Below are positions 37,011 through 61,132 of a stretch of 64,000 bases of DNA, in pieces (position 1 is the stretch's first letter; every line of letters starts with the position of its first letter). Below the pieces are notes generated by a model, which saw only the letters and a program-made list of their open reading frames with translations, had not been told where the DNA came from and did no database searches. The DNA is from a virus, in the IMG/VR virus record IMGVR_UViG_3300046167_000883, positions 32,001 to 96,000 of that record. One strand, given 5' to 3'. The position numbers and the translations under genes are program-made.

Positions 37011-37936
37011 TCTCTCTCCTTATCTAAAAAATATTGCACATCCACATCCCATAGCTTCTTACCCAAAAGCAAAAGTTTTGGAATGATTTCTTCACTGTGT
37101 TTTCTGTTATCTGTAAAGACAAATTGACAGTTTCCTGCAAATTCGTGTTGAATCGAAATTAAGTTTGAGAATACCCAGCCCAACTTAGGCGCCCTTCTGC
37201 CTCTAGTAAATATAGCTTCTTTTTCTATAGTTTTAATTGGCTTCTCGACAACGATATACATATAACTGTCAAGCTCCACACATCTTTTCATTTCTCTTCT
37301 AAATCTATCTACTTGGCCGCCAAATGTTGATAAGAAGTCACCAGCGCTTTTTCTATCTACAAAAGTATTTGAAAAATTATTTCCACCCAACGTATAATCT
37401 CCAAAATCTAATTTTAAAATTTGTGATTTAGGAAATTTCAATGGTTGCTGCTCTCTAGTATCTATCAAAACCTCCACATCGACGTTTTCGCTGAATTCTT
37501 TGGGCATACCCTTGTTAAAGATGGGCTTGGCGCCCATAGCTTCGCAAGCTTTTGTGTATGTCCCAAAGTGTTTCTTGTATACATCCAAATCGGGTAGTTG
37601 GCGTTTTAATAACTCTAGATAAAATGGCGCGTGAGTATATTTCTTTTGTTTGATTCTCCTTTGGGCGAGTTCGATAATATAATCCTTAACCTCTGAATCT
37701 GGTGCTGACTCGCACCACTTCACAAGTTGTGAACGGTTAATGAAATCGTTTTCGAAATATTCTTCCTTCTTCTTGAATGGCAGTGGATTGCCGTTGAGTT
37801 TATTAAAACGCGGGTAATGTTTTACATAGTAATCCGCCACATACATCTTATGTGCTTTAAGATGACTGTGCAGTGATTTTTCAGAGTCAAACTCTGCCCC
37901 ACATTCTTTGCATTTATAAGACATCGTCAATTCCAA
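37007..37936 (-). CDS. C2H2 zinc finger + ERCC4-type nuclease
   Basis: CKEC...HLKAH; IDTREQQP...LDFGDY...VDRKS. Confidence 0.75.
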   Translation of the reverse strand: MELTMSYKCKECGAEFDSEKSLHSHLKAHKMYVADYYVKHYPRFNKLNGNPLPFKKKEEYFENDFINRSQLVKWCESAPDSEVKDYIIELAQRRIKQKKYTHAPFYLELLKRQLPDLDVYKKHFGTYTKACEAMGAKPIFNKGMPKEFSENVDVEVLIDTREQQPLKFPKSQILKLDFGDYTLGGNNFSNTFVDRKSAGDFLSTFGGQVDRFRREMKRCVELDSYMYIVVEKPIKTIEKEAIFTRGRRAPKLGWVFSNLISIQHEFAGNCQFVFTDNRKHSEEIIPKLLLLGKKLWDVDVQYFLDKERE

Positions 37937-42538: not shown

Positions 42539-44047
42539 ATGGCTGACAATCCTCATTTTTTAGAAAAAGAAATTCATTCCACATTTAATTCTGGCGAATT
42601 AGCAAACAATTTCGACAGAAAAATAAGGGCATTAACCGACGACTTTCCAACCGATAGTTCTCAAAACAAAAGTTCGATTACTCGTTGTTATAGAGAATTA
42701 AATAATCAGCTATCTCGATTTGGCTTAAATGATTATATTAAGGGAGCAATTAATGCTGGTCTTTCTCCTATCGATTTGGAAGATGTTTTTTCTATTTATC
42801 GTTCTGGTTTATATTCTCAAGCAAAAGCTGCATATAGTCTTAGAGATCTTTTTGGCACAAATCCTCGTTGTGTTAAAGTTCGTAAGGGAACTTATGATCC
42901 AAGTAATCCCGAAGATTATGAAAAAGATTTTAGGGTAAGTGAACTCACTGATGGCACTCTGGAGACTTGGGTTGGTGCAGGAAACAATGGCTATATTGAA
43001 ACATGGTATGACCAAGTAGGTAGTGTACAAGATGACCCAGAAAATATTACTGGGTTTTTGATGAGAGGTGTAACCAACCCAACTACACTCAACGGCGAAT
43101 GGAAAAAGAATGGTAGCAATAAAAGCAAACCAATATGGAAGCAGCTAGTTGAAGGAAGTGATACTGAATTTACTAATCTTAGAATAATTTGGAATGGCAG
43201 TCAGTGGTTGATGCGTATAGCAGGTGGGGACAGTTTATTTTAGATCTTCAGCTTGATACCGATTATCCATTCCATAAAGATAATGTTTGGGTGGCAGAAT
43301 CGGGCTATACAGGCACACCAACGTTTCATAGTTTTGATGGTGGATGGTATGATCCAACTGCTGGAGAAGGTGGTATGCTTACTCAAGATTCTGAATCTTT
43401 CCAACCTCTTATTGTGTCAAATGGAACCTACTTAGGGAGAAATCGATTTTTCTGATGAGTACGCTGATCCAACATCAGAGTACGAAACATCTGAACTTAA
43501 TCGCGATAGATTGAATTCTCACTTTAAATTTAACTTACAACCATGGAACGAACAGTATCTTTCTATATTCACCGTAGCTGCATTTGATAAAGATGCAGGA
43601 GAACTCGTTGATGGTAACCATAAAAATCAAGTCTTTCTCGTAAATCAAGCGCCAGTCGAAGCGGGTGATGCATTTCAACGGATGGTATTTGATAATGCTG
43701 GAAATTATAAATTTACTTTAAACGATGGGTCTGACCAGAGGTTTATTGGAAGTGGGCCAGGAGATTATGGAGATAATTCATATCATGTTTTTAGTACTAT
43801 AATATATGATGCCAGGTCGTATGGAGGCCCAAGAGCCAGGGGTGAGAATTATGTAGACGGGGGCGATTATAAAGATAGAAAAAATTTAAACGTTATAGAT
43901 TCAACGGTTGGTGAAGATACTCTCTATTCAGCGCCATCAAATCCATTCTTGGGTAAAGTTAAGGAATTGATCATCTTCGAGAATGACCAATACATAAATA
44001 GATCAGCAATAATGGCGGACATTAATAGTTACCACAAAATTTACTAA
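42539..44047 (+). CDS. virion adhesin with a single AAYSLR/TWYDQ module (split by +1 errors at ~43240, ~43253, ~43436)
   Basis: ORFs 42539, 43189 and 43511 join as ...SLFRSSADTDYPF...GTYLGEIDFSDEY...; ends GKVKELIIFENDQ..NRSAIMADINSY like the adhesin C-halves. Confidence 0.7.
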
Positions 44048-44048
44048 A

Positions 44049-44306
44049 ATGTCTGAGAACCCCCATTTTTTAGAAAAACAAATTCACTCCAATTTTGATT
44101 CGGGGTTTTTGGCCACAGGTTTTGATTCAAGAATTTCTGGTCTAGCTAACGATTACCCAACTGGTGATGCTGGCAATATATTTCTATACGATAGGACGAT
44201 TAGAGAACTCAACAGAAAGCTCGATAGTTTTGGCCTTAATTCGTACATAAAGGGCGAAACAGACGCGGGTTTTACTCCTTCAGATATTTCTGGATTTTTT
44301 AGTTGA
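44049..44306 (+). CDS. small virion protein, paralog of the 42539 N-terminus
   Basis: NPHFLEKxIHSxFxSG...RELNxxLxxFGLNxYIKG shared with 42539. Confidence 0.75.
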   Translation: MSENPHFLEKQIHSNFDSGFLATGFDSRISGLANDYPTGDAGNIFLYDRTIRELNRKLDSFGLNSYIKGETDAGFTPSDISGFFS

Positions 44307-44715
44307 CTTTTGTGTTTTTTTGAACAATATGGTTTGTATTGTTCATTGAAATTTTTAATAGTTCTGATATTCTTAGGAGTATTGGGTAATGATCCACCAT
44401 TCCAATAGGGGGTAACTAAAACGTAGTGTATAATGTGCTAAGACATAAGGCCTGTGGAATAGGCATTGATTGAGCGGTATACTGTTAGATCAATCATTTA
44501 TTATGCAAGGTAACTTCGCTACATCATCTATTGGGTTAACTATTAAGTAGACCTGCCATGCCTCTGATTCAAGCATAATTTGGCGAAAAAGTATAAGAAT
44601 CTGATCAAATCTTATATTGGTGTTTAGATTGAGTTCGTAATTCCTCTGCGACGGCGGGGGTTGATAAAGAGGATAAGGATTGCGCTTTTCGCGGTCGACT
44701 CCCTCACACTTTTAA

Positions 44716-44790
44716 GGGCTTGTGGCTGACTGGTAAAGCAGCGAACTCATAATTCGTCACATTTTGGTTCAAATCCGAACGGGCCTACCA
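44716..44790 (+). tRNA. tRNA with CAT anticodon (Ile2 or Met)
   Basis: GGGCTTG acceptor; anticodon arm GCGAA-CTCATAA-TTCGT; T-loop GGTTCAAATCC; encoded CCA. Confidence 0.85.
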
Positions 44791-44833
44791 TTTTTTCTTG
44801 ACTTATTTTATTTTGGGGCCATTATATCACTCA

Positions 44834-45442
44834 ATGCTTAAAGATAAGATACTTGACTTAAAATTAAAGGGATTGAATCAATCCGAAATAGCTCTCAAAC
44901 TTGGTTGCGCCAAATCTACTGTATGTTGGCACTTTAATCCCGAAAAACAATTAAAAAAAGCTCAACAGCGCAAAAAAAAGATCCCACCACATATTGTTAA
45001 GTGGCAACGTAACATATCGCGCTTTTCTACGGCCAAAACAAAAAATAAAGTAAAACGAGAAATAAAAGAATTGACACTTTCAGAAGCTTCTGCTAATTTT
45101 CGTGGCAGATTAAAAGATTACGCAAAAAAGCACAAATCTGATACAGAAAGAACTAAAATGGTAAATATTAAAAAAGTAGAAGAAAAATACAACATTACAG
45201 AAGAAAACACAAAAATCATCTGCCGATATACTGGTGACGTTCTTGATTGGAAGCGTCCAGGAGAATGTGAGATTGACCACACGGAACCCCGATCAAAAGG
45301 TGGCGAAAATACAATCGAAAACCTACAAATCTTGTCAAAAGCCGCGAATCAAGCAAAAGGTGATATGACTCACGACGAATTTATCGAATTTATAAAAAAG
45401 TGTTACCACCATTGTTGTGTGGATGACAATTCGGTCGAGTAG
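44834..45442 (+). CDS. HNH homing endonuclease with N-terminal HTH
   Basis: GLNQSEIALKLGCAKSTV HTH; CRYTG...EIDHTEPRSKGGENTIENLQ...NQAK; start ATG 44834 after TTGACT-N16-CATTAT. Confidence 0.85.
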   Translation: MLKDKILDLKLKGLNQSEIALKLGCAKSTVCWHFNPEKQLKKAQQRKKKIPPHIVKWQRNISRFSTAKTKNKVKREIKELTLSEASANFRGRLKDYAKKHKSDTERTKMVNIKKVEEKYNITEENTKIICRYTGDVLDWKRPGECEIDHTEPRSKGGENTIENLQILSKAANQAKGDMTHDEFIEFIKKCYHHCCVDDNSVE

Positions 45443-45505
45443 CATAATGGATAATGCAACGGATTTCTAATCCGTCGATTGCAGGTTCGAGTCCTGTCTC
45501 GACTA
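45433..45505 (+). tRNA. tRNA-Arg(TCT)
   Basis: GGTCGAG/CTCGACT acceptor; ACGGA-TTTCTAA-TCCGT; GGTTCGAGTCC; no encoded CCA. Confidence 0.9.
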
Positions 45506-45522
45506 AAATTTAAAACAAAATA

Positions 45523-45765
45523 ATGAAAGACATAACAGAAATAGCAGAATACTTACACGACGAAGCCCTCGTTCTTGAAGGCTTGGATGATTGCATCCTT
45601 GGATATAGCGAGGATGGGATTTTGATTTATTCCTACACCAGAATGCTCGACCACTTTACCGAAATTGACGGAATGAGCCAAGAAGAAGCCGCAGAATGGA
45701 TCGATTACAATGTGATGGGGCTTATGCCTAATGGTTTGGGGTTTATTATGTGTTATGAGGTATAA
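45523..45765 (+). CDS. conserved-looking phage hypothetical protein
   Basis: GLDDCILG...YSY...GMSQEEAAEWIDYN. Confidence 0.7.
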   Translation: MKDITEIAEYLHDEALVLEGLDDCILGYSEDGILIYSYTRMLDHFTEIDGMSQEEAAEWIDYNVMGLMPNGLGFIMCYEV

Positions 45766-45766
45766 A

Positions 45767-46195
45767 ATGGGAGACCTGCACCCCTTTGACAAAAATCTTG
45801 TGTTTTATAAATACCGAGGAGATAAGGAAAGGTGGGTTTCTTATAAATGGCTAAAAGAACAAAGACTTAGAGCCGCCAAATCAAATAAAAAACATTACAA
45901 CAAAAACAAAGAATATTATATCAGTAAAGCTCAAGAAAGAAAAAACAAGACCCAAAATATAAACCTTTCTGATTTTAATAAAGAAAAAATAAAAAAAATA
46001 TATACCAGCGCCGAAGATGATCATGTAGATCATATCTTTCCTTTGGTTCATCCTCATTTTTGTGGTTTGCATGTGCCTTGGAATTTGCAAGTGCTTACGG
46101 TTTTTGGGAACCTATCTAAAGGCAACAAGGTTGAAGAAAAGTATTATAGCATCCTTGCAGATAACACATTAAGGTTTGAGGAAAACAGGGTTTGA
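45767..46195 (+). CDS. HNH endonuclease
   Basis: HVDHIFPL...CGLHVPWNLQVLT..NLSKGNK; start moved to ATG 45767. Confidence 0.8.
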   Translation: MGDLHPFDKNLVFYKYRGDKERWVSYKWLKEQRLRAAKSNKKHYNKNKEYYISKAQERKNKTQNINLSDFNKEKIKKIYTSAEDDHVDHIFPLVHPHFCGLHVPWNLQVLTVFGNLSKGNKVEEKYYSILADNTLRFEENRV

Positions 46196-46409
46196 CTTTT
46201 TTTGGGTTTTTTTCTAATAAGGTCGCGACTTTGATGACGCGTTTCTCGAAAAAGGGGTGGGGTACTCGCGCCAATTTCGAATCGTGAAAAATCGCTGGGA
46301 GATAGAAATCTGTCTCCCCCCCGCTTGTCCTGTGTTTTGACCGCCTCTTTTTTTCAACAATGGGTGGGGGTATACCGCAAAAAAAAAATCACTTTTTTCG
46401 CCTAAGTGC

Positions 46410-46438
46410 TTGACTTATCGAAAAATTTTTCCTATTCT
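46410..46438 (+). promoter_or_regulatory. first early sigma70-type promoter
   Basis: TTGACT-N17-TATTCT. Similar promoters at 46673, 46852, 47471, 48271, 48510, 48745, 49663, 50828 (+) and 52971, 53450, 56483, 61063 (-). Confidence 0.75.
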
Positions 46439-46469
46439 GTAAGCATAATCAAATTAACCAAAAAAAATT

Positions 46470-46640
46470 ATGAAAACTGCAACACTAGACTTCGCCTCTC
46501 AAGTTAACATTCTCGCTATCGATAGCGAGTACCACATGGCTCTTGTCATGGATGAAGACGGAGGCGAGTTTGAAGTCTCGCTTAACCGTCTCGACAATAT
46601 CCAAGACGAAATTCTCGACCTCTCACCGCTCGAACGGTGA
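46470..46640 (+). CDS. small early protein (56 aa)
   Basis: Hand translated MKTATLDFASQVNILAIDSEYHMALVMDEDGGEFEVSLNRLDNIQDEILDLSPLER; has its own promoter. Confidence 0.7.
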   Translation: MKTATLDFASQVNILAIDSEYHMALVMDEDGGEFEVSLNRLDNIQDEILDLSPLER

Positions 46641-46707
46641 GAGAAAAAAAATTAAAAAACTTTGCGATTCGCTTGACAAACCCTAACTTTTTCGCATACT
46701 TGTAATC

Positions 46708-46872
46708 ATGAACGAAATTGAAAACGCAATCGACTTTCTCACACAAGCTAACTACAACGCGAACCGCGAGCGCGGTGAATCACCTCGCCGTCTTGCCTTG
46801 GTTTTCGGAAAAGAAAAAGTTGTGATCATGGAAAAAACTTTCCAAAATCGCTTGACAATCGCACAAAAATAA
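46708..46872 (+). CDS. small early protein (54 aa)
   Basis: MNEIENAIDFLTQANYNANRERG...; ATG 7 nt after the -10 of TTGACA-N16-CATACT. Confidence 0.7.
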   Translation: MNEIENAIDFLTQANYNANRERGESPRRLALVFGKEKVVIMEKTFQNRLTIAQK

Positions 46873-46886
46873 CCACACTCTTAATC

Positions 46887-47066
46887 ATGAAAGTCACACA
46901 AACAAAAAGTAAAACTGGAAAAGATCTGATGAAGGTCGAATGGGATTCACTTAGCCTCGACGCTTTCGCTGAAAAAAAGAGCGAGCTACTCGCGCAAGGC
47001 TATAAATACGTCAACAGCGTCGACGTTCCGATGTCGATCATTAAACACGCTTACTTCGCAAAATGA
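46887..47066 (+). CDS. small early protein (59 aa)
   Basis: MKVTQTKSKTGKDLMKVEWDS...; own TTGACA promoter. Confidence 0.7.
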   Translation: MKVTQTKSKTGKDLMKVEWDSLSLDAFAEKKSELLAQGYKYVNSVDVPMSIIKHAYFAK

Positions 47067-47212
47067 AAATTTTTGAACTACTAGCAGTCATCGCCTTCGG
47101 GCTAGTCTTAGGGCTAGCCCTCTACCTAGGGCTTAAGCTCGACGACAAAGCGCAAGAGATAAAAGAAAACTCTTGGCATCGCTTCGAAGAAATCGACAAC
47201 GCAATCAAATAA
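47063..47212 (+). CDS. small early membrane protein (49 aa)
   Basis: MKIFELLAVIAFGLVLGLALYLGLK...; ATGA-coupled to the previous gene. Confidence 0.65.
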   Translation: MKIFELLAVIAFGLVLGLALYLGLKLDDKAQEIKENSWHRFEEIDNAIK

Positions 47213-47216
47213 TAAA

Positions 47217-47330
47217 ATGGAATTAAAAATTGACAGATTCACCATTGTGTGCTTGTGCATCACGCTTTGCTTCGGCGTAGCGATCAATAAATTTGACTTG
47301 GTTAGGATGGCGCTTGGTTGGCTTATGTAA
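47217..47330 (+). CDS. small hydrophobic protein (37 aa)
   Basis: MELKIDRFTIVCLCITLCFGVAINKFDLVRMALGWLM; its TAA is supplied by the repeat element. Confidence 0.55.
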   Translation: MELKIDRFTIVCLCITLCFGVAINKFDLVRMALGWLM

Positions 47331-47403
47331 GTGCCTGAGTATCAACGACTTACGGCGCGGGGCGCCCCCCCGCCGCGCAAGTGCTTGATATACAACGACT
47401 TAC
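47327..47403. repeat. 77-bp double-palindrome element, copy 1
   Basis: GTAAGTGCCTG-AGTAT-CAACGACTTAC, 23-bp GC spacer, GCAAGTGCTTG-ATATA-CAACGACTTAC. Confidence 0.95.
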
Positions 47404-47413
47404 GAAACCGCTG

Positions 47414-47430
47414 TTCAAATGCCGTGCCAA
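47414..47430 (-). promoter_or_regulatory. sigma54-like promoter facing element 1
   Basis: Minus strand TTGGCAC-GGCAT-TTGA (one mismatch at -12). Confidence 0.5.
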
Positions 47431-47505
47431 CTTTATAAAATTTTTTTTTCACTTTTTTCTGCTTGAGGGCTTGACAGCCGCACCAAAATCCACATTGTTT
47501 TAATT

Positions 47506-47760
47506 ATGGAAGCTAAATTATATGATGTATCGGGTCTCTTTGAAACAGGAACTGAAACCGCAACTTTCGACCGCTCGCGCGAGGGTTTGGACGCCGCCTA
47601 CGAATTCGTGAATAATGCCTTCGCTTGGGAAATCAAGTGCGGGTCTGAGTTGGTCGACGAGTGCGACCCTTGGGTGGAAGAAGACCGTGATGAGTGTCGA
47701 TCTTACTCATTCAAGCAAGAGCGCCCTCACTTACTCCTCTGCCTATTCGTTTTAATCTAA
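47506..47760 (+). CDS. early hypothetical protein
   Basis: ORF track; ATG 7 nt after the -10 of TTGACA-N16-CATTGT. Confidence 0.65.
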   Translation: MEAKLYDVSGLFETGTETATFDRSREGLDAAYEFVNNAFAWEIKCGSELVDECDPWVEEDRDECRSYSFKQERPHLLLCLFVLI

Positions 47761-47779
47761 CCTATAAATCCATACTACA

Positions 47780-48106
47780 ATGAGCAAAGCAATCCTAGTT
47801 GACCCATTCGTCCCAGAAATCAAACCCGTGGAGGTCGAAGACTTCCACTGTATCCAACGCCATATCGGATGCGACGTGTTTACCTGCGTACGCTTTCCAG
47901 ACGGGAAGCACGTTGCCTACGTCGACGACGAGGGCTTAATCAACGGCACGGAACTTGCCGTTCGATTCACAGACGACATTTACCCGCAGCCTCTCGCTGG
48001 TCGCGTTCTCATTCTTGCCGACGACGGCATGGGCGGCGACGCCGACTGCGAGTTGACAGGCGCAGACATTCAAGCGGTGATTCGCGGAATTGTAAGCATT
48101 TTTTAG
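47780..48106 (+). CDS. DUF3846-like protein
   Basis: IQRHIG...YVDDEGL...PLAGRVLIL. Confidence 0.65.
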   Translation: MSKAILVDPFVPEIKPVEVEDFHCIQRHIGCDVFTCVRFPDGKHVAYVDDEGLINGTELAVRFTDDIYPQPLAGRVLILADDGMGGDADCELTGADIQAVIRGIVSIF

Positions 48107-48115
48107 TTGACATCC

Positions 48116-48191
48116 GTAAGTCCCTGCAAGTCAACGACTTGCGGGGCGGGGGCGGCCGCGGCGGCGCAAGTGCTTGATACTCAACACTTAA
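48116..48191. repeat. double-palindrome element, copy 2 (spacer apparently inverted)
   Basis: GTAAGTCCCTG-CAAGT-CAACGACTTGC, 23-bp G-rich spacer, GCAAGTGCTTG-ATACT-CAACACTTAA. Confidence 0.9.
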
Positions 48192-48305
48192 TCAAACAAA
48201 AAATTTTATGCTCCAGGTTGGCTTTCTACTATTTGGCGACCTATTTGCGTTCGATTTGCGTTCGATTTGCTTGACAACTGATTTGGATTCAATCACTATA
48301 CAAAA

Positions 48306-48536
48306 ATGAAAATTACACTAGACCTAACCAAAGAAGAGTGCCAAATCATCCGCGACGCTTTAACTAAGCGGATCTTAATCGAAGACAATTATCAACGCGA
48401 TTTACTTAGAGCGACGCAAACATCTTCCGTTTCTAACCTTATGCAATTAAGCGATCGGCAGCGCAATAAAATGTCGAACCTTCAAGATCAATTTTCTTCA
48501 CTTTTTCTGTTGACCAAGTGGAATCAATCAGCATAA
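48306..48536 (+). CDS. early hypothetical protein
   Basis: MKITLDLTKEECQIIRDAL; own promoter at 48271. Confidence 0.7.
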   Translation: MKITLDLTKEECQIIRDALTKRILIEDNYQRDLLRATQTSSVSNLMQLSDRQRNKMSNLQDQFSSLFLLTKWNQSA

Positions 48537-48565
48537 TAATAAACACAATCAACCAACACCAAACT

Positions 48566-48736
48566 ATGAGAACAGACATCACAATCACACTAGACGAAGC
48601 AAAAGACATTCTTGAAGAATACTTCGCAAAGCAACAAAACCTTGAACCAATGGAGACTTATGTCAGAATCACACTAGAGGGTTACATTGTTGACACTTTG
48701 CTTGAAGATGAGCCTGTCTACACAGCAAATGTATAA
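48566..48736 (+). CDS. early hypothetical protein
   Basis: Likely start ATG 48566 (MRTDITITLDEAK), after TTGACC-N16-CATAAT. Confidence 0.65.
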   Translation: MRTDITITLDEAKDILEEYFAKQQNLEPMETYVRITLEGYIVDTLLEDEPVYTANV

Positions 48737-48807
48737 AAAAACCCTTGACAAATTAAAACAATCTGTCATAATAGCAGCTTAATCAAAAATCCAAAAGGAG
48801 AAAAGAT

Positions 48808-49050
48808 ATGAAACTAAACGCAATACAAAAAACACGCCTCGCAATCCGCCGCGCTTTCGCTAAAAACAACATGGCAGAGATTACCTACAACAAAAAGAGC
48901 GACGATACTAAAAGCTCTTACATCATCGACATGAACTTCATCGAAGACTTCGGTGATATGTTCAACACTTACTCTTATGCTACTGGCTTTAAGAATGGCG
49001 GCGTTCGTTCGTTCTATAAGAACAGGATCGAAAAAATAAAACTCGTCTAA
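48808..49050 (+). CDS. small WYL/SH3-like beta-barrel protein
   Basis: EITYNKK...GGVRSFYKNRIEKIKLV resembles the WYL C-terminal RxFxxxRI motif. Confidence 0.5.
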   Translation: MKLNAIQKTRLAIRRAFAKNNMAEITYNKKSDDTKSSYIIDMNFIEDFGDMFNTYSYATGFKNGGVRSFYKNRIEKIKLV

Positions 49051-49080
49051 CTTTCTCGTTGGTTAAACGTGTGTGTGGTT

Positions 49081-49115
49081 GCCGCCTCGTCTTGTGGTTA
49101 GGGCGGGGCGGCTTT
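49081..49115 (+). terminator. rho-independent terminator
   Basis: GCCGCCTCGTCT...GGGCGGGGCGGC followed by TTT. Confidence 0.6.
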
Positions 49116-49132
49116 AACAAACAAAAAAAAAT

Positions 49133-49498
49133 ATGACAAACAATACAGTCAGAGTCTACCGCAACTTAAACAAAAAATGTCTTTCGGTTCAGTCTTGGGT
49201 CGAAGGTAAAGGTTGGCGCGTCACGGATCACGTTCAAAAGATCTTTCTAGACAACGCGTCTTTCAAAGTCTCGCAAGCGGGGCGCCGTAGAGTCTTAGCA
49301 GAACAAAAGAAAAATGTTCATGCGTTTATCGTTGGCAAAAGAGTTGAGCAGCCAAAGAAAACTCCCGTTGAGTTGGTGAAATACAATCCTTACCATTGCC
49401 CCAACTTCTACTATGTGGCAAACCCTAACCGTTATCCCGTTAGTGTTAGCTCTGTTGAGATCACGCCCAAAATGATAAAGGCTAGTCTCGTAGGTTAA
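49133..49498 (+). CDS. conserved-looking phage early protein
   Basis: VRVYRNLNKKCLSV...GRRRVLAEQKKNVHAF...YNPY. Confidence 0.75.
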   Translation: MTNNTVRVYRNLNKKCLSVQSWVEGKGWRVTDHVQKIFLDNASFKVSQAGRRRVLAEQKKNVHAFIVGKRVEQPKKTPVELVKYNPYHCPNFYYVANPNRYPVSVSSVEITPKMIKASLVG

Positions 49499-49506
49499 TA
49501 GGTTCC

Positions 49507-49583
49507 GTAAGTCTTTGATAACCAAGGACTTGCGTTACCTCGGCCCCCCGCGCCGCGCAAGTCGTTGATATTCAACAACTTAC
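49507..49583. repeat. 77-bp double-palindrome element, copy 3
   Basis: GTAAGTCTTTG-ATAAC-CAAGGACTTGC, 23 bp, GCAAGTCGTTG-ATATT-CAACAACTTAC. Confidence 0.95.
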
Positions 49584-49698
49584 GAAACTCTTTACGCGGC
49601 CTCGGCTCGGCTTGTCAATACTTTTCTTAAAAAAGTTTTAGAAAAATTTTTCTGAAAATCGCTTGACTTACTGACTCGCTGAATCAATACTCCTTCTT

Positions 49699-50406
49699 AT
49701 GGCTAAACTACTAAACAACGGAAATGCGAAAACTAGCAAAGGCGAAAAACTCGGTTGGATCACTTACGGTCTACACCTTGCGCCTTTTAACCTAAGCGGA
49801 AAAAATGTTTGCTCTCATGCTTCAAAAGGCTGCGCTGCTGCTTGCCTTAACACGGCAGGACGCGGCGCAATGTCAAACGTTCAAAACGCGCGAATCGCTA
49901 AAACTCAAAAATTCTTTGCGGATAAAGAAGCCTTTACTTGGCAACTTGCAAAAGAGATTGGCAATGCTGTAAAGCTCGCAACCAGGAAAGGAATGAAGCC
50001 TTGCTTTCGTCTCAACCTTACAAGCGACTTGCCTTGGGAAAACATAAAGGTAGAATCGCACGGGAAAAAGCTTTCGCTTATGGAAATGTTTCCAAATGTT
50101 CAATTCTACGACTACACGAAAAACTTTAAGCGGATGCTTTCTTTTCTCAAAGGTGAAATGCCGAAAAACTATCACCTTACTTTTTCGCGTAGTGAATGCA
50201 ACGACGACAAAGTTTCAATCGTAAAAGAACTTGGCGGCAATATCGCTGCTGTCTTTCGTAACGAGTTGCCAAAGGCTTGGAAAAATGTTCAAGTGATCGA
50301 CGGAGACGAAACTGACTTACGCTTCTTGGATGGGGCAAATAAAATTATTGGATTGGTTGAAAAAGGTCTTGCCAAAAAGGACAAATCGGGGTTTGTTATA
50401 GGCTGA
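49699..50406 (+). CDS. Gp88-like Cys-motif protein
   Basis: CSHASKGCAAACL, RLNLTSD, FYDYTK, NYHLTFS, DGDETDLRFLD. Confidence 0.7.
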   Translation: MAKLLNNGNAKTSKGEKLGWITYGLHLAPFNLSGKNVCSHASKGCAAACLNTAGRGAMSNVQNARIAKTQKFFADKEAFTWQLAKEIGNAVKLATRKGMKPCFRLNLTSDLPWENIKVESHGKKLSLMEMFPNVQFYDYTKNFKRMLSFLKGEMPKNYHLTFSRSECNDDKVSIVKELGGNIAAVFRNELPKAWKNVQVIDGDETDLRFLDGANKIIGLVEKGLAKKDKSGFVIG

Positions 50407-50452
50407 TGCTACTGTTCTTTCTTCTTATCTTTCTCACTGTAATAATAACGCG

Positions 50453-50662
50453 ATGACAAAAAATCAAAGATACTATGAAATCAAAAAAATCTGCGAATCT
50501 AAAAATCTCAAAAACGACATTAGGCAACTGCCCTCAACCGAAGCCGACTTGCTCGACGAGTTTTCTCGATTCGATACAACGCTTGAACCAACTGACAATC
50601 TACAGGACTCGGACAAATGGCAAAACAAATTCCTTCAAAACTTAATCTTTGGAACGTCTTAA
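50453..50662 (+). CDS. early hypothetical protein
   Basis: 69-aa ORF ending 10 bp before element 4. Confidence 0.6.
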   Translation: MTKNQRYYEIKKICESKNLKNDIRQLPSTEADLLDEFSRFDTTLEPTDNLQDSDKWQNKFLQNLIFGTS

Positions 50663-50672
50663 AGACGATTCC

Positions 50673-50749
50673 GTAAGTGCTTGATTATCAGGCACTTACG
50701 CGATCGCGGCCCCCCCGCGCCCGTAAGTCCTTGGTAAACAACGACTTAC
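50673..50749. repeat. 77-bp double-palindrome element, copy 4
   Basis: GTAAGTGCTTG-ATTAT-CAGGCACTTAC, 23 bp, GTAAGTCCTTG-GTAAA-CAACGACTTAC. Confidence 0.95.
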
Positions 50750-50770
50750 AGAACTCTGAATCGCGGCATA

Positions 50771-50787
50771 CGCAAACCCCGTGCCAA
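50771..50787 (-). promoter_or_regulatory. sigma54 promoter facing element 4
   Basis: Minus strand TTGGCAC-GGGGT-TTGC, perfect -24/-12 spacing. Confidence 0.65.
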
Positions 50788-50884
50788 TTTGTATCGAAAA
50801 AAAATTCACTTTTTTCGTTTTATAGGGTTGACGAAAGCAAAAATTTTTCCCATACTGTGATCTTAACCTAAAATAATAAATACT

Positions 50885-51682
50885 ATGAATATCAATACCG
50901 AACACTCCGCCAATCAAGAACTTCTTAACCTTCGCGTGTGCGCTGCCGATGAGGTAGACTTCGCAAAGGTTCAAGGCGTTACTACTCCAGAAGCCTCCGA
51001 TCGTTGGACTCCCATTGCTCACGATGCGCTCGTAAATCAATTCCGCGCGACAATCGACAACACTGAGCTTGAGATCGTTAACGAGCATCACTCGCTCCAC
51101 CGCTACGGTCAACGCTACTTTGGCTTGTTTCAAGTCAAGGGCGTGGGTCGCAAGCACGGCTCCGATGTTGGCACGGTGATGTGCCTCCGCAACTCACACG
51201 ACAAGGCTTTCCGCGCTGGCATCTCTGCTGGTGATGCGCCTTTCGTTTGCTCCAACTTGATCTTCTCAAATGAGATCGTGTTGGGTCGCCGTCACACAAC
51301 CCACATCATGCGCGACTTGCCGCAAATAATTTCCCGTGCGATTGGGCAGTTGATGGACTCGTGGACAACTACTGACAACCGCATTGACTCTTACAAGTCA
51401 ACTGATATCGATGACCGCGTGGCTCACGATCTGATCTTGCGCGGCTATCAAGCTGGCGCGTGTGGCAAGACGCAAATCGCCGACATTCTCACGCAGTGGC
51501 ACAAGCCAGAGCATGAAAACTTTGAGGGTCGCGATCTGTGGTCGCTTCAAAACGCTTTCACCAACGTGTGGCGTGGTAACACTCTCAACACCGCGAATCG
51601 CTCAAGCTCGCTGTACTCCGTGCTTGACACGTTCGCCTCGTGTGCGAATCCCGTGAAGGCTGAGGTGATTAACGCCTCGTAA
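50885..51682 (+). CDS. DUF932-like protein
   Basis: WTPIAH, LRNSHDK, FVCSNLIF, RRHT, LWSLQNAFT. Confidence 0.75.
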   Translation: MNINTEHSANQELLNLRVCAADEVDFAKVQGVTTPEASDRWTPIAHDALVNQFRATIDNTELEIVNEHHSLHRYGQRYFGLFQVKGVGRKHGSDVGTVMCLRNSHDKAFRAGISAGDAPFVCSNLIFSNEIVLGRRHTTHIMRDLPQIISRAIGQLMDSWTTTDNRIDSYKSTDIDDRVAHDLILRGYQAGACGKTQIADILTQWHKPEHENFEGRDLWSLQNAFTNVWRGNTLNTANRSSSLYSVLDTFASCANPVKAEVINAS

Positions 51683-51693
51683 ACTACCGCCGT

Positions 51694-51731
51694 GCCTCGC
51701 CTCAATCTTGGGGCGGGGCTTTTTCTTTTTT
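51694..51731 (+). terminator. rho-independent terminator
   Basis: GCCTCGCCTCAA-TC-TTGGGGCGGGGC followed by a T-run. Confidence 0.75.
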
Positions 51732-51742
51732 GCTTGACATTC

Positions 51743-51819
51743 GTAAGTGCTTGGTAATCAACGACTTACGCGGCTGCGGCCCCCCGCGACCTGTAACTCC
51801 TTGATATTCAACAACTTAC
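51743..51819. repeat. 77-bp double-palindrome element, copy 5
   Basis: GTAAGTGCTTG-GTAAT-CAACGACTTAC, 23 bp, GTAACTCCTTG-ATATT-CAACAACTTAC. Confidence 0.95.
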
Positions 51820-51949
51820 ACAACTAGGAGTTCTAAAACTATCTTAAAATTTTTTTGGTTTAGTTTACATTTGATTGCTTATTTGGTTTTGTTTACATTT
51901 GTCGAGTTATTTGGTTAGGTATAAATTGTCAAGCTTATTTGGTCGAAAT

Positions 51950-51985
51950 AAAAAAGGGGAGCGGTTTTTACGCCACCCCCCCTTC
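51950..51985 (-). terminator. terminator of the leftward early cluster
   Basis: A6-GGGGAGCG...CGCCACCCCCCTT hairpin just after the RuvB-like gene. Confidence 0.6.
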
Positions 51986-52004
51986 GAATGAATGAAACGA
52001 AGAA

Positions 52005-52934
52005 TTATTTCTTTTCGATGACGTTTAGACCTTTGCCTGTGATCTCGCGAGTGCCGTTGATCTTCATAAGACCACGCTTGAGCAGGTAGATCTCTGCATC
52101 GCGCTGGATGGCGGTGCGGCTCATGCCTGTGACAGCGGAGATCATTTGAAGCGAGCAGTTGCCACGTTCCTTGAGGATGTTGAGAATCTCAATCTCTAGG
52201 TTGGACAAACCAAGTGCTTTAATATCTAATACCTTGCACATCTTGCCCCAGTCATCTTTACTGAAGTCCTTGGAATTGTTAGTCTCGCAGTACAGCATGA
52301 TTTCTTTGCATCGTTTAACTGCGGAGCGAGCATTGCCGCGAGTGGTATCTGCAACCTCAAGACGCAGCCCATCTTCAAACTCGATCTCACCACAAACCAA
52401 ATCAATAATATCAGCCATCTCTTGTTGGGTGTATGGCTTGAAGTCCACAACAGTCAGACGATCCTTGAATGGAGCAAACAACTTATCCATCTCAGTAGTG
52501 GCAAAGATGAAATTCTGCTTGGCGAAATCGAACGCAAAAATTTGTTCGGCATGGTGGTATTCTTTGTAGCTACCTTTTTCGGTATTGAATACTGTAAGGA
52601 AGGCATTGACCAAATCTTTTGGCAGCATGTGTGCTTCATCCATAAGAATGGTGATTTCGTTGTGCATTACGATAGGCAGGAAAATCTGCTCGAAAAACGC
52701 GTTGGCGTTCTTGATGGTAGAACAGTTGATCTCAAGGAATGGGCGTTTGCTTCCGTCCTTATTCTTGAGGTTGGAGGCATACTCCTTGGCAAACTCAGTC
52801 TTACCCAATCCCTTCGCGCCACTCATCATAAGAAAAGGTGCGACACCTGTCTTGTTTTGAGCTTGAGCAAAAAATTCAAGTTGAGACTTAACTTGGTCTT
52901 GTCCAATAAGGTTTTTAAACATGGTAGTATTCAT
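52005..52934 (-). CDS. RuvB-like AAA+ ATPase
   Basis: LIGQDQVKSQL, GAKGLGKT, LMDEAH, FATT, DRL, RGNAR, C-terminal winged helix ExYLLxxGL..REIT. Confidence 0.8.
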   Translation of the reverse strand: MNTTMFKNLIGQDQVKSQLEFFAQAQNKTGVAPFLMMSGAKGLGKTEFAKEYASNLKNKDGSKRPFLEINCSTIKNANAFFEQIFLPIVMHNEITILMDEAHMLPKDLVNAFLTVFNTEKGSYKEYHHAEQIFAFDFAKQNFIFATTEMDKLFAPFKDRLTVVDFKPYTQQEMADIIDLVCGEIEFEDGLRLEVADTTRGNARSAVKRCKEIMLYCETNNSKDFSKDDWGKMCKVLDIKALGLSNLEIEILNILKERGNCSLQMISAVTGMSRTAIQRDAEIYLLKRGLMKINGTREITGKGLNVIEKK

Positions 52935-52967
52935 AGGTGGGTTATAGTGACAGATTGGTGGTGGATG

Positions 52968-53156
52968 TCAAGAAAAATTTCGATTTAAAATCGTAGTTAC
53001 ATTATCGTATACCTCATTAAATAATTCTTGCGCTTCGTCTGTAAAGACCTCAACATCATCAACCACCTCGATTGCCAGCCATTCGCCAATTCTGCGCTCG
53101 ACTTCATTCTCTGCGATTTCTGATGCGGCTTCCATTATTTTTTCTGCTGTATTCAT
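52968..53156 (-). CDS. acidic hypothetical protein
   Basis: Real start MNTAEKIME at 53156, TAATG-coupled to the upstream gene. Confidence 0.65.
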   Translation of the reverse strand: MNTAEKIMEAASEIAENEVERRIGEWLAIEVVDDVEVFTDEAQELFNEVYDNVTTILNRNFS

Positions 53157-53413
53157 TATTGGTGCAAAGTGAATGAGATTTTTTGTTCTTCTTCTGGCTC
53201 TGGTTGAGTAGGAGTAGTTGGCGTAGGTGCTGTACCTTGAATCGCCGCGCCCATCTGTTCCAACCACTTGCGTGATACAGGAATCTGCATAGCCTCACCG
53301 CAAAACATTTTGAGGTCGGCTAGTGTTACATTGGTGAAGGATGTCGAACCCTTCTTACGACCACTACCTGTTTTACGAGGTGTGCCATCTTTGTTTAGTG
53401 TTACTTTACTCAT
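53156..53413 (-). CDS. small basic DNA-binding protein (AT-hook-like)
   Basis: KDGTPRKTGSGRKKGS; own promoter TTGACT-N16-CATTAT. Confidence 0.65.
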   Translation of the reverse strand: MSKVTLNKDGTPRKTGSGRKKGSTSFTNVTLADLKMFCGEAMQIPVSRKWLEQMGAAIQGTAPTPTTPTQPEPEEEQKISFTLHQ

Positions 53414-53476
53414 GATGCCTACATAATGTCATACCATTTTAAAAAGTCAAGCGCGATTTTAATAAATTTAAAAAAA

Positions 53477-53641
53477 TTACTTCTGCTGGAGGAATGGTAC
53501 AATAGCCTTATATTCTTCCATCAAAGCCGCACCAAATTTTTCGTGTGATTCGGGGTCTTGTTCATCGAACTCTTGGATCGCCCCCATTAATCGAAAGGTT
53601 TTTTCTGTTAGGTTGTCGAGTGGGTTTGTTTCTTGTTCCAT
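53477..53641 (-). CDS. small hypothetical protein (54 aa)
   Basis: Hand translated MEQETNPLDNLTEKTFRLMGAIQEFDEQDPESHEKFGAALMEEYKAIVPFLQQK. Confidence 0.6.
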   Translation of the reverse strand: MEQETNPLDNLTEKTFRLMGAIQEFDEQDPESHEKFGAALMEEYKAIVPFLQQK

Positions 53642-53946
53642 AAGATTTTTTGTTTGGTTGGCGGTGAAGCATATTTGACACTTGGTAAGTTGTCAAGCAA
53701 TATTTGGCGATTTTTTAATTTGGCGACGAATTTAAGTGTAATATAATGTGAAGGTGGTCGCCCACAATAATCAGCTTTTAATAAATTTTTTTAAATTTGT
53801 GCTTTAAGGAAAACCTAGTAGTAGCCTCTGGAGTAATAAAAAATTATTCTGTCAGCTTAACAAGCAGCATATTTGAAACCAAGACAGTTCAACAGCATAT
53901 TTGCACTAAACCGAAATTGGCGACGATTTGGGGTTTTTTTGTTTGT

Positions 53947-54174
53947 TTAGTTTTGATTTAGTTTTTCTCTGCTTAATTCAATTTGTCTGTCCCAAAACTT
54001 ACCTTGGTAGTCCTGTACGATTCGCGGCACAAGTAAGAATGTATCCACCAGTATCCCACCGATACACGCTGCAAGCCGCACTATAGCTATAAACAGCCCA
54101 AAGAATGGGGTAATAACAGCCCCCACTATATAACATAAGGTAAGACCAAGGTAGTATCTGTGTATTGTTTTCAT
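53947..54174 (-). CDS. small membrane protein
   Basis: Long hydrophobic stretch in 75 aa. Confidence 0.55.
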   Translation of the reverse strand: MKTIHRYYLGLTLCYIVGAVITPFFGLFIAIVRLAACIGGILVDTFLLVPRIVQDYQGKFWDRQIELSREKLNQN

Positions 54175-54526
54175 AAGTTAATCGTATTAAAAATTTCGTT
54201 ATTTTAGAGAGCGAAAAGGGGCAATTCCCATCCCACTCCATATTCACCCATTTTGTCCCACATTTGTTTTTTATTCTTATACTGTTATGTATATACTCTC
54301 TATATATGTTTATGTGTGATACTATAGGGGTTTAGCGGGGGATGGCAAGAAAAATCTGAAAGAATTTTTCACCACTAAAACAAGTTGTGTGTAATAGATT
54401 TCGACAGGTAATTCGCGCCATCAGAGCGTGTTTTTTAAATAAATTTTTTTATAATCTCAAATTCGTTGTTGTTATTGCTTTCTATAGTTCGTAATACATT
54501 TGTTACCTGTTTGGCTTCATTTGTAA

Positions 54527-55114
54527 TTACATATCGTAATTGAACCGTTTGAAGTCCTCTTTCCAGAATGCCTTTACCTTTTCTTTAAGCGTTGGAGTGT
54601 AGTATTCCGTATAATGCTTGTGTGGCGTTTTGTTTTGGACGGGTAATATAGGGTTAATCAAGATACGATTCTTCCTTAAAAACAAAGAAAAATCCTTCTG
54701 TAAATTCTCAAACCTCAACACGTCTATCTTTGTATCGACATCCAAGTAATACGATTGACTATGGGAAGCGATTGTTTCCTCCTCCACGCAAAAGTCTATA
54801 AATTCCCCAAAATCTTTAAAGTCTACAGGAATAAATTCTGCCTTCTGTGAGAACTTATACTGAGACAACATTCTATCATAGGGATTTCTGCATACGGCAA
54901 AACAAAATTTTTTTAAAATTTCATCAGTGAGTACTTTTACTGCATCTGAAAGTTTACAGTGTGATGGCGCAAATATACCCATGTGATCCTTGGAATGCTT
55001 CAATGATTGCATATACTCGTCTTTGATCGTATTGATCGGAGCGACGTGATTGTATATACTAGTCGAAGCATTTTTGGGAATGCGTATAAATGTGACCAGT
55101 CTACCTTCAAACAT
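54527..55114 (-). CDS. sulfotransferase family (Sulfotransfer_2-like) protein
   Basis: FIRIPKNASTS (5'-PSB), CRNPYDRMLSQY (3'-PB), RFENL, HYTEYY, EDFKRFNY. Confidence 0.8.
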   Translation of the reverse strand: MFEGRLVTFIRIPKNASTSIYNHVAPINTIKDEYMQSLKHSKDHMGIFAPSHCKLSDAVKVLTDEILKKFCFAVCRNPYDRMLSQYKFSQKAEFIPVDFKDFGEFIDFCVEEETIASHSQSYYLDVDTKIDVLRFENLQKDFSLFLRKNRILINPILPVQNKTPHKHYTEYYTPTLKEKVKAFWKEDFKRFNYDM

Positions 55115-55295
55115 TTTTTGCTAGGATTTCCTCTAAGTCTATCTCAAAGTTGTTGTAGGCGTGTGAAGGGCTAAATTGCTTCATATCGTCGTCGAATATC
55201 TCCATAAGGTCTTGGGCTTCTTCAAAGCTTAATCTGCGCTTCTCCATAGCTTTATGTACCATACGGACGGCTTTAGTCTTATAATAGTCCTCCAT
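55107..55295 (-). CDS. hypothetical protein
   Basis: Likely start MEDYYKTK at 55295; an upstream 48-aa ORF 55295..55441 is TAATG-coupled. Confidence 0.55.
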   Translation of the reverse strand: MEDYYKTKAVRMVHKAMEKRRLSFEEAQDLMEIFDDDMKQFSPSHAYNNFEIDLEEILAKNV

Positions 55296-55579
55296 TACCC
55301 TCCGTTTCTTGTAACAAAATCCCAAATTTCTTCTGGTACTTCGTCTTTAAATTCATTGATAGCTTCTTTATCAATGCTATATAATTTTGCCAGCACAAAT
55401 ACAAGTGTCTGCTCGGTGAATGATAATCCAGTTAGTTTCATAATTTTTTAAATTTTTTTTCTGATGGTTTGGTTTGAAAAAAATGTAGCATCTGGCACTT
55501 GTCGCATTTGTATGAGTATATATAGCCTCCCATATACTGCCCATCGTTTTGATGGTCGAAAATTAACTTACCTCCACAT

Positions 55580-55786
55580 TCACAGTTCATTTTTTTTAAA
55601 TTTTTTTAAATCTTTTGCAAGTAGTTTTTTATCTTCTGCGCTTAATGATTCCACCCATTCATCTGATACATCTTCCAAGGATATCCCTTTACCAAACAAA
55701 ATTTTCTTTTCTTTTGTGTGGGGATAGAGCATATTCGTCATACCGAAATATGTATACGCTTTGGATTTAAGTGAAAAGTAACTCAT
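55580..55786 (-). CDS. hypothetical protein
   Basis: ORF track; ATGA-coupled to a 50-aa TM ORF at 55783..55935. Confidence 0.5.
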   Translation of the reverse strand: MSYFSLKSKAYTYFGMTNMLYPHTKEKKILFGKGISLEDVSDEWVESLSAEDKKLLAKDLKKFKKNEL

Positions 55787-55938
55787 TCGTTTTCAAAATA
55801 CTCTCTGTTTTTCTTTGCTATGCGTCTTTTGATTTCGCTTTGGTTATGATCGAACCAAGCGCAAAAGATTCCACAGGAAAGCACGAAGCCTAACACAATA
55901 AGCGATGCTAATATAATTCCATATTCGTAACTCATAAT

Positions 55939-56448
55939 TTAATATACCCAGATTGGTTTGTTCTTCTTCCAAGTAGCGAAGGGTTTGTCGTACTTGTAGT
56001 AAAGGCGGTACTTGCCAACTTCGTCAGCAGAATCAAAATTTTCGTGCTGTCTACAGTTCATGTGTTCACTAATTGCAATAGCAAAAGGTGTTTGGCTGCC
56101 AGCAGGATTGGATGACTTGCCGATATTCTCATAAGCCCAATGTAAAAACTCAGCAGAGAAGTGTGGATTGAAGCCGCGATCCAGACGCTCGACCTCCATG
56201 GCAAGCGAATGAGTCAGAAGCCACTTGAGATTGTCGATCGTAGCCCTAGCCCATATTGAACATGGGTGCTTCTCATAAGAATACTTGCGAGGCGTACCCT
56301 TCTTAGTCTTTGGTGCTTCTGCTAGTACCTCATGGGAAAAACAGTTAGCTACCATTTGCGCTGATTCAAGCACCATCTTGTTTACATGCTGATCGCACAG
56401 CCACTTTGCGGATTGAATCGGATCTTTATCTATGCAGAATATATTCAT
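55939..56448 (-). CDS. pyrimidine-dimer DNA glycosylase (DenV)-related protein
   Basis: MNIFCIDKDP..SA....DQHVNKMVLESAQM, HPCSIWAR, YRLYY; start fixed by TTGACT-N16-CATTAT-N7-ATG. Confidence 0.7.
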   Translation of the reverse strand: MNIFCIDKDPIQSAKWLCDQHVNKMVLESAQMVANCFSHEVLAEAPKTKKGTPRKYSYEKHPCSIWARATIDNLKWLLTHSLAMEVERLDRGFNPHFSAEFLHWAYENIGKSSNPAGSQTPFAIAISEHMNCRQHENFDSADEVGKYRLYYKYDKPFATWKKNKPIWVY

Positions 56449-61105: not shown

Positions 61106-61132
61106 GTAAGTCGTTGAAAAACAACAACCTAT
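61106..61132. repeat. solo 27-bp palindrome box
   Basis: GTAAGTCGTTG-AAAAA-CAACAACCTAT, same box as in the 77-bp elements. Confidence 0.8.

Follow-up and report, generated by a model that had tools for sequence, protein, structure and literature searches.

A palindromic double-box repeat at early-gene boundaries of uncultured phages: a candidate IHF-type boundary module with cassette shuffling

What separates the early genes of an uncultured phage into cassettes, and how might it work? This question is raised by a 64,000-nucleotide stretch (64 kb; positions 32,001 to 96,000) of IMG/VR virus record IMGVR_UViG_3300046167_000883, which we refer to as the window. An earlier note on this stretch had described five 77-bp elements, each with two palindromes around a GC-rich spacer, and had proposed three possible roles for them: (a) paired recombinase sites, (b) tandem protein-binding sites, or (c) small RNAs. 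We found that the elements belong to a large repeat family not previously described, that gene order changes at them between related phages, and that their palindromes match the consensus of the DNA-bending protein IHF. We propose that they are IHF-type double-box boundary modules, with shuffling like that of PeSLs, the regulatory cassettes of T4-type phages (Arbiol et al. 2010, PMC2839356; Comeau et al. 2014, PMC4122927). We give this proposal an even chance of being right.

All five elements were found where the earlier note had placed them (Table 1). Each has two 27-bp imperfect palindromes (box a and box b), whose starts are 50 nt apart and which enclose a 23-nt spacer (the core). The finer details of that description also held. 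Box 2b is 1 nt short. The core of copy 2 is G-rich, whereas the cores of the other four copies are C-rich. The TAA of the 37-aa open reading frame (ORF) 47217-47330 lies inside box 1a. The mean G+C content of cores in the family is 90%, compared with 0.34-0.46 in the window. A degenerate box pattern allowing up to three mismatches matched the element boxes, one lone box, and nothing else in the window, and it gave no match in 100 dinucleotide shuffles of the window. As the earlier note had suggested, a position weight matrix (PWM) of the box was built. It was trained exclusively on other contigs and then run over the 64 kb. The nine intact window boxes scored about 34-42 bits, and the lone box scored 25 bits. 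No further box was found in the 64 kb and none in shuffles.

The elements occupy a regular place between genes. The array sits within a run of small plus-strand ORFs that have sigma70-type promoters, and window elements begin 0-20 nt past stop codons or terminators. In the window and in the related locus L122, box b is followed by a short conserved G(A/C)AAC, an A/T-rich tract, and then a TTGAC-type promoter. The distance from box b to the TTGAC(A/T/G) promoter varied, from about 25 to 80 nt. Across the family, 72 of 284 element edges fell -4 to +19 nt from a stop codon, and for 15 of these the stop was the TAA of the box itself. A second mode of the stop-to-element distance was 30-100 nt, which leaves room for a terminator. 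The edge was less than 30 nt from a start codon in only 16 of 227 cases, and a crude gene call put 64 of 717 boxes inside ORFs. Both the window layout and the family distances agreed with the placement described earlier, just after stops or a terminator, with promoters in each interval.

The box was then used to scan IMG/VR. At least 120 stretches matched, and the family counts given here come from the loci among the matches listed. These contained at least 647 boxes in 139 loci, and at least 64 loci had four or more boxes. The boxes are mostly in one clade of uncultured phages and are usually paired. Genome sizes in the clade are 110-170 kb, and complete members have 134-170 kb. The portal-like protein of the window is also present in 13 of 18 related records, with 36-90% identity. 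The commonest start-to-start distance of a pair was 50 nt (103 pairs), and other whole lineages used 41-42, 46-49, 51-53, or 58 nt. Cores were lineage-specific and 7-35 nt long, and their polarity varied (35 vs 15). In some lineages (L045 and L022) the core is a textbook hairpin with a T-run. Box variants were also lineage-specific and uniform within a genome, such as CTAAGT..ACTTAG in L046 and L026 and GAGTTAC in L124. In five complete genomes, boxes were clustered in one or two regions of ~3-15 kb each. In genome G001, 21 of the 22 boxes lie within an 8.6-kb early region, and the last one is upstream of rIIA, as in the window.

A different phage lineage also carries the box. G003, a 178-kb record without the clade's portal-like protein, has six lone boxes (L151-L156). 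Each is joined to a terminator hairpin that has TTGACA in its loop and a -10 element behind it. This is the PeSL layout plus the box. Elsewhere the box was not found. INPHARED contained no relative and no box, whether the query was 7 kb of DNA, one element, or the portal-like protein. The paired motif was in no isolate bacterial genome; only seven metagenome-assembled genomes (MAGs) had it, and these are taxonomically inconsistent and probably represent phage contigs that were binned wrongly. Three loci that have the GP88 gene and no boxes (L125, L126, and L129) showed no analogous box-core-box repeat, only unrelated promoter-like repeats. Nothing relevant was found in the literature on the motif, on phage use of sigma54, or on palindromic cassette repeats. 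The earlier note had been unable to assign the elements to a named family, and Rfam, INPHARED, and the literature on the motif gave no match either.

Cassette order was compared between the window and its closest relatives, L121 and L122. The window has the gp82-like gene, the GP88 gene with ORF 50453, and the DUF932 gene, in this order. The order in L122 is gp82-like, DUF932, and GP88 with the ORF, and that in L121 is DUF932, GP88 with the ORF, and gp82-like. These order changes coincide with elements. In another locus, L042, the DUF932 cassette is inverted between two elements. Alignment of the DUF932 cassette from three genomes showed homology from the upstream box b via promoter, gene, and terminator to the downstream box a, ending in the core. 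A cassette is thus box b, promoter, genes, a terminator in some cases, and box a, and it is joined to its neighbour in the core. Box b of element 4 is the beginning of the DUF932 cassette. Homology to L122:5848 and the sequence after it, ahead of the GP88 cassette, covers box b of element 3 and the flank that follows this box. Element 5 is chimeric. Its box a and left core half match L122:5798 (96% and 92%, respectively), whereas its right core half matches that copy at 45%; box b and the right core are like L122:7636. Several other element pairs showed the same half-core switch in pairwise tests. The breakpoints are in the GC core, not in the 5-bp centre of the box. The family, the placement, and the breakpoints are well supported.

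In the same regions, 59% of junctions with an element were separated in the comparisons, compared with 25% of junctions without one. When the reference was instead other intergenic gaps that span 100 bp or more, synteny was broken at 62% of element junctions and at 60% of the gaps. This enrichment is not significant, a result that weighs against our proposal. These values indicated that the elements mark exchange points; a causal role is not proven. The earlier note had proposed a test for changes of gene content exactly at the elements; cassette changes do fall there, but other long gaps break equally.

Enzymes of recombination were searched for in the relatives. A tyrosine recombinase (PF00589) turned up in 1 of 18 related records, a record that lies outside the clade and is without its portal-like protein. 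RAYT/Y1 transposase (PF01797) was found in none of the 18, of which eight have a completeness of 90% or more. Searches of related phages for RecT and Erf were negative as well. G001 and G019 have a RecA/UvsX-like gene, and a RuvB homologue flanks the array in the window. Homologous recombination or template switching at the repeats, as for PeSLs, appears more likely than a dedicated site-specific system. Option (a) of the earlier note was correct in part: the elements are where cassettes have been permuted and inverted, but no dedicated recombinase accompanies them (17 of the 18 records lack a tyrosine recombinase, and all 18 lack RAYT).

Predicted folding energies of the window copies were -26 to -40 kcal/mol; relative to shuffles, their z-scores ranged from -2.2 to -7.4. 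Covariation was then analyzed in the family. In 524 distinct boxes, the Watson-Crick frequency at each variable arm position equalled the product of the single-column frequencies, and mutual information was ~0.02. In 82 aligned 77-nt elements, a three-hairpin model had 75.5% of cells paired versus 74.2% in shuffles, and a single long hairpin had 71.9% versus 72.4%. In the box helices of these elements, cells that were not paired were far more numerous than double changes. The GC core folded no better than shuffles, and its fixed-register pairing was 58.5%. When boxes were oriented by co-directional flanking genes, G:T and A:C mismatches numbered 241 and 217, respectively, so there was no G:U bias. 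About one third of the boxes lie between genes of opposite orientation. A search of positions 44000-56000 with Rfam 15 covariance models, at E values up to 1, found two tRNAs only.

The covariation and strand-bias tests led us to reject RNA and single-stranded DNA hairpin models. The sequence is conserved without compensatory change and equally on both strands, which argues for duplex-DNA protein sites rather than RNAs. This conservation pattern fits a duplex-DNA site of a two-fold-symmetric or orientation-indifferent protein. The arm co-variation that had been noted was based on copy 4 alone and fails across the family. Folding as two hairpins or as one long hairpin, also put forward earlier, is not borne out, since pairing is at the shuffle level in both models. 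Small RNAs, option (c), found no support in covariation, strand bias, or Rfam, although promoters of the sigma54 type (see below) would initiate RNAs at the margin of two of the window copies.

The family consensus of the box is a 27-29 bp palindrome, C-GTAAGTCGTTGAT-W-ATCAACGACTTAC-G. Its right half, (A/T)ATCAACGACTTA, matches the IHF consensus WATCAANNNNTTR (as quoted in PMC8942017). In a profile conditioned only on the opposite arm, information was highest at T25, A18, T24, and C17, followed by R26 (A26) and A19. These informative positions are the CAA and TTR of the IHF core, and the four 'N' positions were weaker. A perfect WATCAANNNNTTR half in register was present in 7 of the 9 intact window boxes and in 276 of 564 family boxes (49%). 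In element 1, one half in each box is a perfect match.

An HU/IHF protein (PF00216) was found in only 1 of 34 phage records and is essentially absent, which would leave a host protein as the ligand. The presence of the box in the unrelated 178-kb G003 lineage also favours a host factor. These results suggested that the boxes most likely serve as sites for a DNA-bending protein, for example host IHF. Support is moderate for the ligand's identity and for the molecular function. Of the three options in the earlier note, tandem protein sites (b) appear to fit best, with a conserved sequence lacking compensation and half-sites that equal the IHF consensus.

Motifs of another kind were found next to the boxes. 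Extended sigma54-type consensus motifs, (T)TGGCACG-N4-TTG(C/A), point into the boxes in more than 15 contigs, with a gap of 11-16 nt (n = 29) or 22-24 nt (n = 9). Many carry TTGA, CTGC, or TTGT at the -12 element. Box b is on one side of them, and the A/T-rich tract that belongs to the divergent sigma70 promoter is on the other; any transcript that they initiate would begin at the box, antisense to the upstream cassette. L107 and L116 have more than 12 sigma54 motifs each, some of them divergent and back-to-back, and many drive genes. In these two loci, box pairs are 56-63 nt upstream of several sigma54 promoters. Exact sigma54 cores are otherwise rare in these genomes. Sigma54-type motifs facing boxes were also observed in L012, L085, and L086. 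No enhancer-binding activator (PF00158, Sigma54_activat) passed the cut-off in four relatives. The RuvB-like neighbour of the array was considered as an activator and rejected. It is an ordinary RuvB homologue (PHROGs: also clamp loader) without GAFTGA, and nothing ties it to the boxes. The activator may be host-encoded. IHF and sigma54 are classical partners, and such a partnership would fit the binding of IHF to the boxes; the geometry in the window is not classical.

Together, these observations can be put into a model. The element would be a boundary module between early transcription units, with two palindromic boxes around a core of ~90% G+C. The boxes would be duplex DNA sites with each half of the IHF type, and host IHF would bend the DNA sharply at both sides of the stiff GC core. 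A phage-encoded dimer may be the ligand instead. Lying directly past a stop codon or terminator and 25-100 nt before the next A/T-rich sigma70-type promoter, the module would form a composite end/insulator-plus-promoter unit of the PeSL type. Because ~77 bp are repeated at every boundary, recombination or template switching would take place within the element, most visibly in the GC core, and cassettes would be permuted, inverted, and replaced among related phages. In a bolder version, box, core, and box would be the site of a dedicated nucleoprotein machine, composed of a phage protein, host IHF, and sigma54 polymerase, that insulates cassettes and promotes their exchange or inversion; it would be integrase-free, phage-borne, and present in at least two lineages. 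We think that this version has a small chance of being correct.

Besides the synteny of other long gaps, several points weigh against an IHF-type boundary module. The box is conserved at positions beyond the need of IHF (A22, C23, C27, and G28). The pair spacings of 42, 50, and 58 nt have no 10.5-bp phasing. Judged by the IHF-H' structure, the half-sites are presumably ~2 bp too far apart for symmetric use by one IHF dimer. The distance to the downstream promoter is not constant. Only four copies lack a nearby intrinsic terminator, and termination in the GC core is a presumption. That the host has IHF and sigma54 is an assumption; neither MAG labels nor the protein atlas pointed to a host.

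Three other explanations were weighed against the IHF-type module. The boxes could be operators of a phage-encoded dimeric regulator, and the match to IHF would then be coincidental or secondary. Such a regulator might act as a 'stoperator'-like roadblock that closes early genes, or as an unconventional enhancer-binding activator for the adjoining sigma54-type promoters. The extra conserved positions of the 27-29 bp palindrome are in line with an operator, as are the lineage-specific box variants common to all copies in a genome and the fixed distances between the boxes and the sigma54-type motifs. The box pairs of L107 and L116 have the classical enhancer geometry, and the paired motif is in no isolate bacterial genome, only in the 7 MAGs. 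However, a candidate protein was not found; Sigma54_activat stayed below threshold in the four relatives, and the adjoining AAA+ protein is the RuvB homologue without GAFTGA. The box also occurs in a lineage without the clade's portal-like protein, and there is no overlap between boxes and sigma70 promoters. We regard operators as unlikely, without being far-fetched. Improbable, in our view, is that the elements work as RNA, for 3'-end protection, as RNase III-type processing sites like those of the T7 early region, or as small or antisense RNAs. Transcription at cassette 3' ends or from the abutting sigma54 promoters would provide such RNA with stable hairpins. Elements just past stop codons would be co-transcribed, sigma54-type transcripts would begin at the first bases of a box, and about 24 of 33 such RNAs, counted by eye, would have the G-rich version of the core. 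The strong predicted folding of the window copies is what this explanation would expect, but any transcribed palindrome folds regardless of what was selected. The box helices lack compensatory change, the long hairpin is no better than shuffles, and the coding strand shows no excess of G:U over A:C. The poor fixed-register pairing of the core, the position of about a third of the boxes between oppositely oriented genes, and the lack of an Rfam match are further points against it.

Slighter still is the chance that the elements are selfish REP/BIME- or MITE-like repeats, or dedicated integron-like recombination sites, without a regulatory role. They have many copies per genome with concerted, lineage-specific variants, and their paired inverted palindromes resemble those of BIMEs and REPINs. 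Cassettes are permuted and inverted exactly at the elements, and either core polarity occurs, as in copy 2. Against such repeats or sites, Y1/RAYT was in none of the 18 related records, and the only tyrosine recombinase lies outside the clade. The cassettes have their own promoters, unlike integron cassettes, and the placement of elements relative to stops and promoters is strict. Moreover, the sequence of the box, not its structure, is kept across phages whose portal-like proteins are 36-57% identical, which argues for purifying selection on a recognition sequence.

If the IHF-type module is real, a highly conserved IHF-type double box delimits the hypervariable early genes throughout a clade of uncultured phages that are abundant in aquatic environments. 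Hypervariable early genes are the usual place of host-takeover and anti-defence functions. The box would then be a sequence tag for early-gene cassettes in metagenomes. It would also be a second independent case, outside T4-type phages, of regulatory repeats driving modular gene shuffling. The phage would recruit a host architectural protein, and possibly sigma54 polymerase, at every transcription-unit boundary. Sigma54 appears little documented in this setting and is rarely linked to phages.

The window belongs to the large genome of a tailed phage and carries genes for rIIA, PhoH, a small sigma-like protein, and a tape measure protein of 1949 aa, along with two tRNAs. Its cassettes include genes like gp82 and gp88 of L5, and cassette 1 consists of ORFs 47506-47760 and 47780-48106. 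The promoter of cassette 1 has a weak -10 element and was absent from the consensus-scan list. Cassette 2 has an additional internal promoter at 48745-48772. A TTGACA lies 3 nt upstream of boxes 2a and 5a; it was considered as a sigma70 promoter facing into the element and rejected, as the implied -10 element is poor. On the minus strand, the lone box follows a gene stop and is followed by an intrinsic terminator (~61102-61075), a TTGACT promoter (61063-61058), and rIIA. The same layout, with an A5/T5 centre, a terminator, and the rIIA promoter, recurs at G001:104399-104425. It looks like a single-box subtype of the module.

Table 1. Elements, promoters, and related features in the window (positions counted from its first nucleotide)
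Feature	Position	Strand	Remarks
Element 1	47327-47403	.	box a 47327-47353; G+C core 47354-47376; box b 47377-47403
Sigma54-type -24/-12 motif TGGCACGGCATTTGA	47415-47429	-	points into box 1b, 11-nt gap; TTGA at -12
Cassette 1 promoter	47437-47505	+	A/T-rich tract and TTGACA (47473-47478); read directly
Element 2	48116-48191	.	box a 48116-48142; G-rich core 48143-48165; box b 48166-48191; begins 9 nt past stop of DUF3846 gene
Cassette 2 promoter	48272-48305	+	TTGACA-N17-TATACA; abuts ATG of ORF 48306-48536
Element 3	49507-49583	.	begins 8 nt past stop of L5-gp82-like gene
GP88 cassette promoter	49663-49691	+	TTGACT-N17-AATACT; ORFs 49699-50406 and 50453-50662
Element 4	50673-50749	.	begins 10 nt past stop of ORF 50453-50662
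Sigma54-type motif TGGCACGGGGTTTGC	50772-50786	-	points into box 4b, 22-nt gap; perfect core
DUF932 cassette promoter	50828-50856	+	TTGACG-N17-CATACT; gene 50885-51682
DUF932 gene intrinsic terminator	51694-51729	+	moves with the cassette in L121 and L122
Element 5	51743-51819	.	after intrinsic terminator of DUF932 gene
Lone degenerate box	61106-61132	-	A5/T5 centre; pattern and PWM match

Several other features were observed in and around the array. The -10 hexamers within 48272-48308 and 49663-49701 end only ~5-7 nt before the ATG of ORFs 48306 and 49699, respectively, so these early mRNAs may be leaderless. A tandem TTTGCGTTCGA repeat at 48248-48272, just upstream of the cassette 2 promoter, is kept in L122 at ~2360-2390. 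Three 28-bp direct repeats (TTATTTGGTTTnGTTTACATTTG-like) at 51851-51943 lie between element 5 and a bidirectional terminator and adjoin the RuvB-like gene. L122 has a similar repeat block after its last element. These repeats are iteron-like and may mark an origin. At 44716-46195, just upstream of the array, tRNA-Met and tRNA-Arg(TCT) are interspersed with two ORFs that are HNH/endonuclease VII-like (44798-45442 and 45731-46195). Farther away, the large terminase is represented by two adjoining minus-strand ORFs (35159-37010), the N-terminal ATPase part at 36210-37010 and a 356-aa ORF at 35159-36229. It could be a split gene, a frameshift, or the result of an intervening element. The adjoining minus-strand ORF 37007-37936 combines a C2H2 zinc finger, a homing-endonuclease-associated repeat, and an ERCC4 nuclease domain in an unusual architecture, and it is conserved in at least 20 related loci.

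The element was compared with known systems. For PeSLs, recombination at the repeats has been shown experimentally (PMC2839356). Both are repeated intergenic modules in a hyperplastic early region, flanked by small ORFans, and both show indels, replacements, and shuffling between close relatives. Both have a strong sigma70-type promoter preceded by an A/T-rich tract, and the G/C-run stem-loop that PeSLs have by the stop of the upstream gene has a possible counterpart in the GC core. In G003 and at the lone box of the window, the terminator overlaps or precedes the promoter, as in PeSL subclasses. A difference is that neither a conserved 27-bp palindromic box nor a box-core-box geometry or an IHF-type consensus has been described for PeSLs. 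The GC core here is mostly without a T-run, and the window phage is siphovirus-like, with its long tape measure protein, not a T4-type myovirus.

The BIME/REP elements of E. coli, above all the IHF-binding RIP/RIB type, are likewise extragenic and located at 3' ends of transcription units. They too consist of two imperfect palindromes joined by a short linker, and they have an IHF consensus. They are also G+C-rich relative to their surroundings, and their sequence is kept without obvious covariation. In RIP/RIB, two REPs are connected by a linker that is the IHF site, whereas here the IHF consensus is in the palindromes and the linker is GC-rich. In addition, our elements have no RAYT, are only in phage contigs, and share no sequence similarity with BIMEs. 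Integron attC arrays also have short cassettes parted by imperfect palindromes, with an order that varies between relatives. attC sites are conserved more in structure than in sequence; here the sequence is conserved, compensatory changes are rare, there is no integron integrase, and the cassettes have their own promoters. The stoperators of cluster A mycobacteriophages are 13-bp, asymmetric, orientation-dependent sites bound by a known phage repressor. Like the boxes, they are sites for a single protein that recur many times, within short intergenic spaces close to early or right-arm stop codons. The boxes are instead 27-bp palindromes in apparently lytic phages in which no repressor was found.

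The architecture of sigma54 promoters with enhancers and IHF is partly matched as well. The -24/-12 motifs agree with the extended form (T)TGGCACG-N4-TTGC and have IHF-type sites near them, and paired palindromes of L107 and L116 are ~100-150 bp upstream of sigma54 promoters. In the window and most contigs, however, the promoter faces the boxes, which would be at +1 to +77, and a gene for an enhancer-binding protein was not found in the four relatives. Overall, the PeSL is the closest system by function and the IHF-binding BIME is the closest by form, and the element belongs to neither.

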